A stretch of DNA of 64,000 nt from Escherichia phage vB_EcoM_G5211: sequence record MK327947.1; one strand, written 5' to 3'. The notes beneath the pieces are model-generated. The model had not been told where the DNA came from and did not search any database. It worked only from the letters and a program-made list of their open reading frames with translations. The number at the start of each line of letters is the position of its first letter. Within the stretch, counting starts at the first letter, position 1. Below, in pieces: positions 51,495 through 59,782 of this stretch. A program made the position numbers and the translations under genes.

Positions 51495-53546
51495 TTACAT
51501 TTTAAATTTATCTGGCATTGCGTCTACAGATACCAGATCAGCGATAAGCTGACGTAGAGTTGCCTTATCTGCTTTCTTACGTTCGGTTTTAGCTTCGCTA
51601 ATGAAGCTGGAGAAAGACAGGTCAGAAGCAGGTTTAATAACACCTTCACGGATGAATGCATCACCGTCCGCGATCATCTCGCCAGATTCTTGTAATGCTG
51701 CCAGTTCATTTTTGTTCATAATATGTGCCTCAATGTAATAAGTTTCTTGTGAATCCGTCGATGCCGTAGCACGAGTTACCGTATCAAAGGATAACACAAC
51801 ACCGCGAGGAAGTAAAATCTCGCATTCTTTGTAAGCAAATGCTTTGTTACCTACTGGCAATACAGGGATGTTTTCCGCGCCAGCAATGGAGAAAGCAACA
51901 TTAGCGCCACCTTCACCGCGAGAGCCAGCCATAGAATCAACACCAGCAACGGCACTAGCCACGTTTGCATTCCAGCCGCCAAAAATGTTAGGTGCAAGGG
52001 AAGTGCTCACATAGTTTTTAAAGTAAAACGCTTTTTGCTTACGTGCAGTTTCCCACATTTGCGACCGGAAGTCCATACCACGATACAGAATAGTACCCGG
52101 ATCAAGTTTAACGCCATAGTTGGAGAAGGCATTATCCAGTGCATCGCACATCTTGACCAATTCTTCTGGATCTGCGATGCCTTCAAACTCTTCCAGCTTA
52201 CGGTCGGTTAGGAAGTTGTTCATATTGATGTATGCTGCATCGGCATATTCGCTCAACACAAAACCTTCCGCGCCCGGCAGATCAAGATCAATATCTGCCA
52301 TCATTTCACCCATGTTGCTAGCAATTGCTTCAAACATACCGGAAGCAACATTACGTAGGGCATCGGTTTTAATCTGGGTGATGTGACTACGCAGCATTTC
52401 AGCTTTTACATCTGCTGGCATAGACTGGTCTACTCGATCCATTGCCAGGGCGGTGATCTTGTTTTCGAATACTTCCTCGCTCATGATTTCTTTTAAGCGT
52501 TTGATTGATGCTGCGATAACTTCCGCAGACAATGGATCATATTGATCCTGAACTTTTACCAGTTCGCTTACTGCGTATTTTGCATCGGCTTCGCTTTCAA
52601 AAATAGTACGCATGAAACCATAGCGAGTGATAATATCACTTGTCCAGTCATTCAGAGAACGGGCGGTTGAACGTTCTAAGGCTTGACGATCAATCAGAGT
52701 ATTAAACTGTTTCTTAGGTTCGGCTTCGGTGATATCTTCTTCCGGTTTAAGATTAATTTTTTCTGGATGATTCACATAGTCGCTGTTATAGGTCGCTTGA
52801 GTTTTCAGCATTTCTTCTTTAGTCAAACGAGATTTAGCCGCTACGCGTTGTTCTGCTTCCGCGTTTCGTTCTTCTTCTGACACAAGACTAGCCGCATATG
52901 CCTCATCTTTAGTCAGAGATTCACCAGTAGCCTTAGATACCCAGCGATCACCTAAATCACTTTCTACTTTAGTGAACAAGGATTCATCAAGTTTAATCCC
53001 TTTAATCTTATCAATCGCCATCCCGCGACGCTTGACAACAACTAAAGCGATCTTTTTGCTGGTCATTACTTCCTGCTGGAATACTTCAAACTTCGGTGTA
53101 CGACGCACCAAACGCTCTATAACGCGCTTAACCAGTTCGGTCTTACCTTTCATGCGGGATACGTTAAAACGGAACATAACAGCGTCTAATTGCGCTTTAC
53201 GGGCTGTTTCCATAACCACATCAAAAGCACTTGACATAACTGCAATCGGGTTATCGCCTAGACCATTTTTAAGCTGTACAATACGACCGCTTTTGTTCAT
53301 TTCGCACAGTACAACATGTGCGGTCTTGTCACCCATACGAATGATTTTAGGTGTTTTGTTGGTGAAGTTACAAAGACGGACAATCACATCTTTATCGCGT
53401 GTCTGTACTGCAAAAAGCTGTTTAGGATTCTGCTTAGGCTTTAAGCACTGTACCGGAGCAATACTGCCAAAGTTTTCTTCCTCTTCCGTCAACAGCCATT
53501 TCTCGAAAGATTCAATCATTAGATCGTCGATTTCTAAGTTAAACAT
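51495..53546 (-). CDS. alt: Alt ADP-ribosyltransferase
   Basis: 683 aa (T4 Alt 682 aa); ILYRGMDFRS, YVSTSLAP, ECEILLPRG motifs; position next to gene 54. Confidence 0.85.
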   Translation of the reverse strand: MFNLEIDDLMIESFEKWLLTEEEENFGSIAPVQCLKPKQNPKQLFAVQTRDKDVIVRLCNFTNKTPKIIRMGDKTAHVVLCEMNKSGRIVQLKNGLGDNPIAVMSSAFDVVMETARKAQLDAVMFRFNVSRMKGKTELVKRVIERLVRRTPKFEVFQQEVMTSKKIALVVVKRRGMAIDKIKGIKLDESLFTKVESDLGDRWVSKATGESLTKDEAYAASLVSEEERNAEAEQRVAAKSRLTKEEMLKTQATYNSDYVNHPEKINLKPEEDITEAEPKKQFNTLIDRQALERSTARSLNDWTSDIITRYGFMRTIFESEADAKYAVSELVKVQDQYDPLSAEVIAASIKRLKEIMSEEVFENKITALAMDRVDQSMPADVKAEMLRSHITQIKTDALRNVASGMFEAIASNMGEMMADIDLDLPGAEGFVLSEYADAAYINMNNFLTDRKLEEFEGIADPEELVKMCDALDNAFSNYGVKLDPGTILYRGMDFRSQMWETARKQKAFYFKNYVSTSLAPNIFGGWNANVASAVAGVDSMAGSRGEGGANVAFSIAGAENIPVLPVGNKAFAYKECEILLPRGVVLSFDTVTRATASTDSQETYYIEAHIMNKNELAALQESGEMIADGDAFIREGVIKPASDLSFSSFISEAKTERKKADKATLRQLIADLVSVDAMPDKFKM

Positions 53547-54076: not shown

Positions 54077-54108
54077 GTTTGATTCTCCTTTCGTTTCGGT
54101 ATGTGTGC

Positions 54109-54138
54109 ATTATAGGGGATCTCCGACCCCCCTGTCAA
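54109..54138 (-). promoter_or_regulatory. Early promoter cassette (TTGACA, 18 nt, TATAAT) with GATC palindrome in spacer
   Basis: tgtcaa at 54133-54138, attata at 54109-54114; spacer ggggatctccgacccccc. Confidence 0.65.
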
Positions 54139-54145
54139 CAACTTT

Positions 54146-54664
54146 TTAGTTATTTTTTAATTGCTCATCTTGCAATAGGGCAATCACATGCTGGCGATGT
54201 TCTTCCGATTGAGGAACACCGAAAAAGTTTGTTTTGTAGAAATACTCTAATCGGTCTTCTCGTGTGCTCTCTTCCATCATGATCGCGGGTAGTCCGAGAT
54301 TTCGGAAACGTCGCTTTTCTGCTGGCGTAAAATCACTGTAATACAACATAGAATCATCATTACCAGCAATGCTAAACTCATCATTCATGAAGGAGAATAT
54401 TGCGTTTAAACGCTGTTTACCGTCCACGATTTCGATCTCATAGCGAGAGCCATCATCAATCTTAGCCATTGCGATAGCACCAACCGGAAAATCATTAATC
54501 AGGTTTTCGATAAACATACGTTTGTTTTCGGTGTCCCATACCAAAGGACGCTGATAATCTGGGTTCATGTTGATATAGCCATCTTCTAACCATGCATCAT
54601 AAACAGAGATGACAAAGTTTTTAGTATTGGTATAGTAACGGCGTTTAGGCGTTAAACGGTTCAT
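54146..54664 (-). CDS. DUF262 / ParB-like nuclease-domain protein (DGQQR-type motif)
   Basis: PDYQRPLVWD and IVDGKQRLNAI motifs; ATG at 54664 immediately follows upstream stop (alternative start 54700); about 172 aa. Confidence 0.6.
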   Translation of the reverse strand: MNRLTPKRRYYTNTKNFVISVYDAWLEDGYINMNPDYQRPLVWDTENKRMFIENLINDFPVGAIAMAKIDDGSRYEIEIVDGKQRLNAIFSFMNDEFSIAGNDDSMLYYSDFTPAEKRRFRNLGLPAIMMEESTREDRLEYFYKTNFFGVPQSEEHRQHVIALLQDEQLKNN

Positions 54665-54665
54665 G

Positions 54666-54995
54666 TTATAGTCTCCTGAATGGATCATCACGTAAATCAA
54701 TATCTTTTAAGAACTCATCCCATGAATGGCGGATATTGTTCTTAATTCTCCAGATAAGCGCAGGGATTGAACGCTCTCCCATCTGGAAGTAAGGATCATA
54801 TGATCCGTATGCCCAATATGCTACTACAATTCCACAGTCAGCGCAATAGTATTCTATTTCACTTGCTGGCGACCAAAGTCCATCAATATGATCAGTGATC
54901 TTGCTTTCGATGTTATGACTATGACAATCAGGGCAACGGATGCAATGACCTTGTTTATCGTAATTTGACGTTAGAGAATACTTAAACAATCTCAT
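54666..54995 (-). CDS. Cys-rich zinc-ribbon protein (109 aa)
   Basis: CIRCPDC and CADCG Cys pairs; start overlaps upstream stop (TAATG). Confidence 0.5.
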   Translation of the reverse strand: MRLFKYSLTSNYDKQGHCIRCPDCHSHNIESKITDHIDGLWSPASEIEYYCADCGIVVAYWAYGSYDPYFQMGERSIPALIWRIKNNIRHSWDEFLKDIDLRDDPFRRL

Positions 54996-55711
54996 TATAG
55001 ATCCTTATTGGCTTCAAATACTGCCTTTGCGAATCCTCGCGGGGTAAGTGACCTGATAGTCTTTGTTCTGGTTCCTTTCCCGCCTAGCTTAGAATGCTGT
55101 TTACTGTACCCTTTATTAATCTGCAACGGTTTCTTTTCTGGCATTATAAAGCCTTGTCCGGTCCATAAGCAAGTCTTTTTCGGGTACATATCACGGGCGG
55201 CAATATACTCAGGAAACGTAGGATGCTTATCATCTTCCGGCAAATAACCGCCATATTCCCACGGATGGAACATGTAATCAGGCTTACGCCACATACTAGA
55301 GATAACGCTTACAGGATTCTCTATCATGTAGGGAACTCCTAGCCATTCACCCAAATAAGCGGTTATTTTAGCTGTCCGTACATCATGAACTTGAATCAAT
55401 GGTCCTTGTTCTCGTTTCTTTCGTTCAAAGTGTGCAGCGCCACTAACAGCTAAATTGGTGCACGGTGGGAATGCAAAGATAATATCCGGTTTCCCCCATT
55501 CAAGGTCCATTGCTCTTTCCAGCCAGTTCAAATCAATCCAGGTGTTTACATAAGTAATGTTTGGATGTTCAAATCTGGTATTATACTTTTTGTATGTACC
55601 GTGGTCGGCGTCATCCGCATTAAAGCAGACTACCTTATGACCTGCTTTAGCCCATTCTAGCCCCATTATCCCCGATCCGTCAAAGTTGCAGAATATTAAT
55701 TTTTGTTTCAT
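54995..55711 (-). CDS. Compact DNA cytosine-5 methyltransferase-like protein
   Basis: Motif I-like FDGSGIMG, motif IV PC (FAFPPCTN), motif VI-like IENPV, C-terminal RSLTPRGFAKAV; 238 aa, short for a canonical C5-MTase. Confidence 0.5.
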   Translation of the reverse strand: MKQKLIFCNFDGSGIMGLEWAKAGHKVVCFNADDADHGTYKKYNTRFEHPNITYVNTWIDLNWLERAMDLEWGKPDIIFAFPPCTNLAVSGAAHFERKKREQGPLIQVHDVRTAKITAYLGEWLGVPYMIENPVSVISSMWRKPDYMFHPWEYGGYLPEDDKHPTFPEYIAARDMYPKKTCLWTGQGFIMPEKKPLQINKGYSKQHSKLGGKGTRTKTIRSLTPRGFAKAVFEANKDL

Positions 55712-55949
55712 ATACCACCCTTTAACCCAGCACAGATTTTAGTCGGTTCTTTACCGTGCCACATTAAGTAAAGTCCGTTAATGCGACCTTGTTTTGTGTG
55801 TGATTCTTTTCTAATCTTCTTATAGTGTCGTGCTTCCTCAACTTATTGTTTAGAATACCAATCATAAAGGAAGAGGCACAAAGGCCAACCATTAGCGGCC
55901 TTAATGCAGTTATTAAGAAATTCCTTATTGCGTTTAATTAATTTTCTTT

Positions 55950-56201
55950 TCACGCTACCCCCATTGGTTTGATAGTAACAGAATCTAAAAGACCTTTGTT
56001 AGCCAGTTCGCGGCAAGTTTTCAGATCCGCAACTTCCCAGCCAGCCGCAATCAGGTTATCAATCAGGCTGTTAGCAACTTCTTCGCTCATGAAAGAGCAC
56101 TGTTTGCCGATGGTGTAGCGCACACGCTGTAATTTCAGTTTACGGAAGCCTTTAACGTTCAGGTCTTTAGCGATTTTCTTTGCGGTTTCGATGTTAGCCA
56201 T
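55950..56201 (-). CDS. Hypothetical early protein (83 aa)
   Basis: ORF with promoter cassette upstream. Confidence 0.5.
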   Translation of the reverse strand: MANIETAKKIAKDLNVKGFRKLKLQRVRYTIGKQCSFMSEEVANSLIDNLIAAGWEVADLKTCRELANKGLLDSVTIKPMGVA

Positions 56202-56241: not shown

Positions 56242-56270
56242 ATTGTAGGGGAGTTATCCTCCCCTGTCAA
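56242..56270 (-). promoter_or_regulatory. Early promoter cassette (TTGACA, 17 nt, TACAAT) with palindromic spacer
   Basis: Spacer ggggagttatcctcccc is an inverted repeat. Confidence 0.6.
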
Positions 56271-59752: not shown

Positions 59753-59782
59753 ATTATAGGGGATCTCCCGATCCCCTGTCAA
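59753..59782 (-). promoter_or_regulatory. Early promoter cassette (TTGACA, 18 nt, TATAAT) with GATC palindrome
   Basis: Spacer ggggatctcccgatcccc, identical to the 56492-56508 spacer core. Confidence 0.65.

Follow-up and report, generated by a model that had tools for sequence, protein, structure and literature searches.

A compact Dcm-like methyltransferase, a zinc ribbon and a stand-alone ParB/DUF262 domain in the early region of a Krischvirus genome: probably accessory neighbours

Described relatives of the three proteins

A characterised phage Dcm is that of K42, a KarlJaspers-type phage, whose 711-bp dcm gene is the trigger of retron Ec86 (bioRxiv 10.1101/2023.08.16.553469). The protein raises the level of 5-methylcytosine (5mC) on the retron msDNA as measured by LC-MS, is active when a plasmid supplies it by itself and loses its activity in the C82A/E128A/K175A/K176A mutant, and its CCWGG specificity was deduced by mutating the motif in msDNA, in a dcm+ host (bioRxiv 10.1101/2023.08.16.553469). 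The genome of KarlJaspers (Bas06) is 95.4% identical to that of K42.

The architecture of DUF262 sensors has also been described (PMC12065111) and serves here as the yardstick for the third protein. In GmrSD, BrxU, SspE and the Menshen sensor NsnA, a ParB-DUF262 core with the motifs QRxxxW and DGxQR is accompanied by a ParBDB domain, a DUF1524/HNH nuclease or another effector. Stand-alone DUF262 proteins (phrog_1583), such as RB43 ORF182c, ST64B Sb33 and those of KP15-like phages, measure 160-190 aa, and no Dcm-like or zinc-ribbon gene adjoins them. Zinc-ribbon proteins of phrog_2993, for instance gp22 of phage 9g, annotated as 'ZPR1 zinc finger protein', are encoded elsewhere among replication or uncharacterised genes, without relatives of the other two genes. 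Within Krischvirus, phage SAP is reported to contain hmC and glucosylated cytosine without a recognisable pathway for making them; TB34 is 99.96% identical to SAP and unmodified, no modified base having been detected in its DNA by HPLC/MS (PMC13390438).

The locus described here contains one gene of each of these three kinds. It lies in a 64,000-nucleotide stretch of Escherichia phage vB_EcoM_G5211 (MK327947.1), hereafter the window. An earlier note on this DNA had read the three genes as a three-part system; its domain calls have held, and the system has not. The reading preferred here, with a probability of about 0.75, is that an orphan Dcm-like methyltransferase, a C4 zinc ribbon and a minimal ParB/DUF262 protein are three unrelated accessory genes in the early zone of an RB49-like Krischvirus rather than a co-evolved system.

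The five-gene early unit

The 2-kb region is 97-98.6% identical to Phi1, GEC-3S, TB34, RB49-type and other Krischvirus phages, and by its sequence the window can be assigned to Krischvirus (RB49/Phi1/GEC-3S-like). The trio makes up the 3' three of five genes in an early transcription unit between two stem-loop early promoters:

56242-56270, minus strand: early sigma-70 promoter at the start of the unit, TTGACAGGGGAGGATAACTCCCCTACAAT, with a G/C stem-loop between -35 and -10
55950-56201, minus strand: first gene of the unit, 83-aa protein, phrog_14908
55708-55953, minus strand: second gene of the unit, 81-aa ORF with a GTG start, phrog_7065
54995-55711, minus strand: gene 1, predicted C5-methyltransferase, 238 aa
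54666-54995, minus strand: gene 2, predicted zinc ribbon, 109 aa
54146-54664, minus strand: gene 3, predicted ParB/DUF262 (GmrSD_N) protein, 172 aa
54109-54138, minus strand: next stem-loop early promoter, at the downstream end of the unit, TTGACAGGGGGGTCGGAGATCCCCTATAAT, 12/12 consensus positions

The start of gene 3 was taken at the ATG that follows an AGGAG Shine-Dalgarno sequence; the ORF listing reaches a TTG at 54700. The annotation of GEC-3S gives the same order, namely promoter, 83-aa ORF, 81-aa ORF, genes 1, 2 and 3 and the next promoter, and places a promoter at the site matching 56242-56270. The downstream promoter at 54109-54138 drives the following 59-aa ORF.

The stem-loop promoter pattern has three matches in the window, compared with 0 expected. 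They resemble, and we take them to be, the 'promoter-early stem-loop' cassettes of RB49-like phages, sites of modular gene shuffling; the three promoters are likely recombination sites for such shuffling in Krischvirus. The third copy lies at 59753-59782 on the minus strand, and all three have a G4...C4 stem-loop and bound small gene blocks. About 0.6 kb downstream of the trio and outside the unit, a 683-aa ORF (51495-53546, minus strand) lies where the GEC-3S annotation has an Alt-like RNA polymerase ADP-ribosyltransferase.

The junctions within the trio are tight, as had been noted from the sequence. Between genes 1 and 2 the stop and start codons are combined in TAATG at 54995, the last A of TAA being the first base of ATG (1-nt overlap), and between genes 2 and 3 the TAA ends at 54666 and is followed, after a 1-nt spacer, by the ATG at 54664. 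The three packed minus-strand reading frames were found where the earlier note had placed them. Since they are conserved in 56 Krischvirus records and each falls within a sizeable protein family, all three can be taken, on sequence grounds, as genuine genes.

The 83-aa protein encoded by the first gene of the unit has only sub-threshold matches in Pfam and resembles the C-terminal part of RT_UG35 weakly in PADLOC (E 2.6e-5, profile positions 722-785 of 938), and this match to the UG35 defence reverse transcriptase probably reflects a small shared helical domain. The 81-aa ORF is unbroken in GEC-3S, TB34, SAP, FL04 and an ECD7-like contig, and in these relatives its stop codon overlaps the ATG of gene 1 (ATGA). 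In the window it is broken by a TAA at codon 37 (55843-55845), so that this phage has lost the coupling between the 81-aa ORF and gene 1.

Domain content of the three proteins

The motifs quoted in the earlier note were all located in the translations: gene 1 contains FDGSGIMG, FPPCTN, IENPV and RSLTPRGFAKAV, gene 2 the pattern CxxC...CxxC, and gene 3 both DYQRPLVW and DGKQR. In gene 1, FDGSG occupies residues 10-14 (motif I), PPC residues 82-84 (with Cys84) and ENP residues 131-133 (with Glu131), followed by Lys178/Lys179; motif I, the Pro-Cys of motif IV and the Glu of motif VI stand in the canonical order of C5-methyltransferases. C84, E131 and N132 are invariant across 30 family members. 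The protein matches phrog_757 'DNA methyltransferase' over residues 1-237 (E 3.4e-91) and has 7311 homologues, which measure 219-259 aa among the 120 matches listed. Its structural model adopts a Rossmann-type SAM-methyltransferase fold, with DNMT3B and bacterial C5-methyltransferases as the best structural matches.

The likeness to the KarlJaspers Bas06 Dcm extends over the full length (56% identity, E 4e-93) and includes size (236 vs 238 aa), motif order, the Cys/Glu/Lys-Lys residues and a DNMT3-like fold class, and the four residues mutated in K42 Dcm align to C84, E131, K178 and K179 of gene 1. On account of the phrog_757 match, this identity and the conservation of the four catalytic-mutant residues, gene 1 is placed, from its sequence and predicted fold, in a family of phage C5-methyltransferases that is known, compact and functional. 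Both it and the KarlJaspers/K42 Dcm are orphans, a cognate restriction enzyme being absent nearby; they differ in that the KarlJaspers gene belongs to Drexlerviridae rather than Straboviridae and has another genomic neighbourhood. The kind of gene is already known, and several GenBank records name gene 1 Dcm or C-5 cytosine methylase. By analogy with K42 Dcm we infer the activity and the specificity of this protein, which would be directed to CCWGG.

Thus far the C5-methyltransferase call of the earlier note is borne out by motif order, phrog_757, fold and the homology to the KarlJaspers Dcm. In structure comparison the fold is nearest to C5-methyltransferases, and the match to PF00145 stays below threshold (E 0.014; 15.2 bits against a gathering score of 22), covering residues 10-100 with motifs I-IV only. 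The curated PF00145 model does not accommodate the gene 1 family, which has diverged too far or is too compact for it. A PDB sequence search with gene 1 returned nothing even at E 10, and none of the unit's five proteins had a match in NCBIfam. Gene 1 shares with E. coli Dcm and M.EcoRII (PF00145) the catalytic fold and the order of motifs I, IV, VI and C-terminal helix, and a CCWGG target is presumed to be common to them. Compared with canonical C5-methyltransferases, however, it is about 90-230 residues shorter and lacks the large target-recognition domain, which agrees with the small size remarked on before. Conservation within the family is highest between motif VI and the C-terminal helix, and this stretch is the only candidate for sequence recognition.

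Gene 2 has a strong match to phrog_2993 and a weak one, below cutoff, to the Pfam family Zn_Ribbon_TF (E 5.6e-4). An exhaustive search assembled a family of 164 cluster representatives, mostly 55-140 aa long, in which Cys21/24/51/54 and a YWAYG motif are conserved; across 28 sequences C21, C24 and C54 are invariant and C51 is present in at least 90%. The phrog_2993 proteins, 9g gp22 among them, have the same four cysteines and YWAYG at 38-48% identity, and the Krischvirus gene 2 is set apart from them by its own C-terminal extension of about 20 residues. For the viral-contig scan a 9-sequence alignment was used as seed, the 28-sequence alignment being too diverse; a scan with the gene 2 sequence alone recovered Krischvirus only. 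With two CxxC pairs kept across the family, the reading of gene 2 as a Cys-pair zinc ribbon stands, and it is predicted to be a C4 zinc ribbon.

Gene 3 matches PF03235 (GmrSD_N) above threshold (5e-20). A profile search found 2870 relatives at E <= 0.001; those among the 120 matches listed carry PF03235 only, and in the same set some measure 160-190 aa and others 260-300 aa. The motifs YQRxxVW, DGKQR and NFxGVPQSEEH are invariant across relatives at 25-57% identity. The stand-alone proteins of phrog_1583 introduced above have the same three motifs at 35-42% identity. In PADLOC gene 3 resembles the Menshen sensor NsnA (1e-20), with the match confined to the N-terminal half (profile positions 48-188 of 385), and PD-T4-2_A (4e-12); by fold it resembles BrxU and SspE. 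It has the ParB-DUF262 core, QRxxxW and DGxQR in common with GmrSD, BrxU, SspE and NsnA, whereas GVPQSEEH, the third motif, is peculiar to the subfamily of gene 3.

In addition, gene 3 differs from these sensors in what it lacks. A ParBDB DNA-binding domain and a nuclease domain are absent, the 172-aa chain ending after the DUF262 core, with neither DUF1524/HNH nor another effector, and Pfam and PADLOC searches of all five proteins encoded in the unit returned no nuclease family. Read from its sequence, gene 3 would be the ParB-DUF262 core alone. Of the link to DUF262 and GmrSD proposed earlier, the DUF262 domain remains and the GmrSD enzyme does not: a GmrSD assignment was ruled out by the absence of the DUF1524 His-Me/HNH nuclease from gene 3 and from the unit. 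Membership of Menshen (NsnABC) or PD-T4-2 was likewise rejected, as ParBDB, ABC-ATPase and effector are missing and a promoter and the 59-aa ORF lie downstream. The invariance of its three motifs across very divergent relatives suggests that gene 3 may be an active NTP-binding protein, with an NTP-binding or hydrolysing function.

As a best guess, gene 3 would interfere with the DUF262-based DNA sensors of the host or mimic them. A fuller anti-defence account would make it a truncated copy of a sensor domain (GmrSD/BrxU, SspE, NsnA, Dazbog, PD-T4-2) that pairs or competes with host DUF262 proteins and shields 5mC-containing phage DNA from modification-dependent restriction. Such an account fits the nearness of gene 3 to defence sensor domains (NsnA at 1e-20, PD-T4-2_A at 4e-12, BrxU and SspE by fold), the absence of effector and DNA-binding domains, and its position under an early promoter next to an enzyme that would make 5mC; natural GmrS-only proteins are known to act with GmrSD partners (PMC12373910). 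Nevertheless, it is judged unlikely: the invariance of the three nucleotide-binding motifs at 25-57% identity suggests enzymatic activity rather than mere mimicry, relatives occur also in prophages, and in phages where no Dcm-like gene adjoins them, and no described example of a phage-encoded DUF262 anti-defence protein was found in the literature. A broader proposal is more doubtful still, in which gene 3 and its relatives of about 170 aa in RB43-, KP15- and ST64B-like phages disarm GmrSD/BrxU, Menshen, Dazbog and PD-T4-2, and in which the Krischvirus copy was recruited beside dcm, 5mC-marked DNA being a substrate of such enzymes.

Distribution, DNA modification and probable roles

The distribution of the three families was surveyed by tblastn against 50,697 phage records. 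Relatives of gene 1 occur in 1524 records (Dhillonvirus, Drexlerviridae, rV5-like and others), those of gene 2 in 92 and those of gene 3 in 302, and near-identical Krischvirus copies number exactly 56 records for each gene. At the DNA level, matches to other phage groups are limited to the gene 1 segment (577 records, 60-80% identity). Loci with relatives were also fetched from IMG/VR (80 for gene 3, 38 for gene 2 and 80 for gene 1) with flanks of 5-6 kb and searched by tblastn or with family HMMs. All three families were found together at only two loci, both Krischvirus, in each of the three sets; a gene 1 or gene 2 relative lay within 6 kb at 2/80 loci of the gene 3 family, again both Krischvirus, and at one other locus of the gene 2 family a gene-1-family fragment was present about 5.8 kb away.

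Individual loci gave the same picture. A methyltransferase or other member of the trio is absent alongside the gene 3 relatives of Morganella phage vB_Mm5, RB43 and ST64B and alongside the gene 2 relative of phage 9g, and in the 50 kb examined around the KarlJaspers (Bas06) dcm neither tblastn nor annotation revealed a relative of gene 2 or gene 3. When all ORFs neighbouring gene 3 relatives were clustered, no partner family was common across lineages; the search for a conserved partner yielded lineage-specific neighbours and antisense artefacts only. In the Krischvirus phage FL04 (PP358550.1), an extra 59-aa ORF (2263-2442 of the extracted locus) is inserted between genes 2 and 3 with a 4-nt overlap at each side. 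It has no similarity to the window or to gp21 of phage 9g, and a mobile pair of zinc ribbon and 59-aa ORF shared by FL04 and 9g was rejected, the two 59-aa ORFs being dissimilar. In each of the 56 Krischvirus records where it occurs, the trio is intact. This is compatible with selection for the set, but the genomes are about 97-99% identical in the region, and simple shared ancestry may account for it.

Tight packing is widespread in these genomes. In 14 kb of annotated GEC-3S sequence, 10/28 same-strand junctions overlap or are separated by <=4 nt, and six of these ten lie outside the five-gene unit and link unrelated hypothetical genes. The junctions are bimodal, 15/28 measuring 50-125 nt and the remainder <=17 nt, and 14 of the 15 longer ones carry an annotated promoter or terminator. 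Over the whole window about 23/71 same-strand junctions overlap or are <=1 nt, an approximate figure from a crude gene caller that mis-set the start of gene 1. Close packing is the rule among genes that share one promoter here. Because overlapping or near-abutting junctions are so common in the genome, the tight packing of the trio is weak evidence for a shared function.

These observations bear on the possibility that genes 1-3 form one machine, in which the ParB/DUF262 NTPase and the zinc ribbon load or target a methyltransferase poor in target-recognition sequence, like ParB-domain/methyltransferase fusions, or in which the three together exclude phages or modify DNA beyond 5mC. The stop/start overlap and 1-nt spacer within a single transcription unit, the conservation of the set in 56 Krischvirus records and the small region left to gene 1 for sequence reading, between motif VI and the C-terminal helix, would all suit it. 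It is nonetheless improbable, given that many other phages have one of the families on its own and that a single near-clonal genus is where the combination is seen, that the KarlJaspers dcm has no gene 2 or gene 3 relative in the 50 kb examined, that K42 Dcm works alone from a plasmid, that FL04 tolerates an ORF between genes 2 and 3, and that tight junctions are common in the genome. The earlier note had argued for one functional unit from the junctions and had named an absent or scattered trio in relatives as counter-evidence; outside near-clonal Krischvirus the families are indeed scattered and occur separately, and the argument from packing has lost much of its force.

Hypermodification, a further role proposed earlier, was examined in SAP and TB34. 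Throughout the five-gene unit their sequences agree (2154/2154 nt), which speaks against that role and excludes the trio as the cause of their difference in modification. An assignment of the trio to the SAP hmC/glucosyl-methyl-cytosine pathway, with gene 1 as a post-replicative C5-transferase of a non-methyl group, is very hard to maintain, as the unmodified TB34 is identical to SAP over the 2154 nt, the close homologue K42 Dcm makes plain 5mC, and glycosyltransferase and oxygenase are absent from the unit. The only local difference between the two phages is a tandem duplication in SAP (OZ034687.1) of the 79-bp stem-loop promoter/leader just downstream of gene 3, at about 1677-1826 of the extracted locus (window about 54077-54145), of which TB34 has a single copy. 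It is invisible to SNP-based comparison and could be an assembly artefact.

The absence of modified bases from TB34 DNA in HPLC/MS counts against methylation by gene 1, although a mark on the roughly 0.2% of cytosines that lie in CCWGG sites would probably have gone undetected, and host Dcm makes the same mark. In the window CCWGG is the most depleted short palindrome, with 27 sites observed compared with 82 expected from a Markov model and 55 from shuffling. GGCC is depleted as well (24 vs 73 expected), GAATTC, GGATCC, AAGCTT, TCCGGA, CCGCGG, AGCGCT, AGTACT and CAGCTG are absent, many 6-bp palindromes being wholly missing, and GATC is not depleted. A footprint of 5mC deamination was rejected as the cause of the CCWGG depletion, since the product CTWGG/CCWAG is also depleted (0.5) and outer-base variants are mildly enriched; the depletion looks like selection against the site rather than mutational decay. 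The avoidance of palindromes is consistent with largely unmodified phage DNA under type II restriction pressure. For the idea that gene 1 fully protects CCWGG, the depletion of this site is neutral or a little awkward, as it would not be expected at a site under full protection.

Returning to the reading of three unrelated accessory genes, the region would be part of the plastic early-gene zone of RB49-like Krischvirus, in which one early promoter (56270-56242) would drive five small genes arranged end to end, as in other promoter-bounded blocks nearby. With SAM and the Cys84 nucleophile, gene 1 would form 5-methylcytosine; its target is most probably CCWGG or another site of similar length. 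By marking the phage DNA, the methylation may protect it from restriction of the EcoRII type, and in hosts with retron Ec86 (Eco1) it would incidentally trigger the retron. Gene 3 would be a minimal nucleotide-binding ParB/DUF262 domain that binds or hydrolyses NTP. The trio was presumably assembled in a Krischvirus ancestor through the modular shuffling typical of the region and not by co-evolution.

For the understanding of phage methylases little changes, gene 1 being one more member of a widespread anti-restriction family with a characterised homologue. In T4-like early regions, stop/start overlap should not be taken as the sign of a functional module. The stand-alone ParB-DUF262 proteins make up a sizeable uncharacterised family of phages and prophages, and since they resemble defence sensors it is reasonable to include them in anti-defence screens. 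Finally, Krischvirus phages carry a likely trigger of retron Ec86, which is relevant to the prediction of host range on E. coli B/BL21-type strains.
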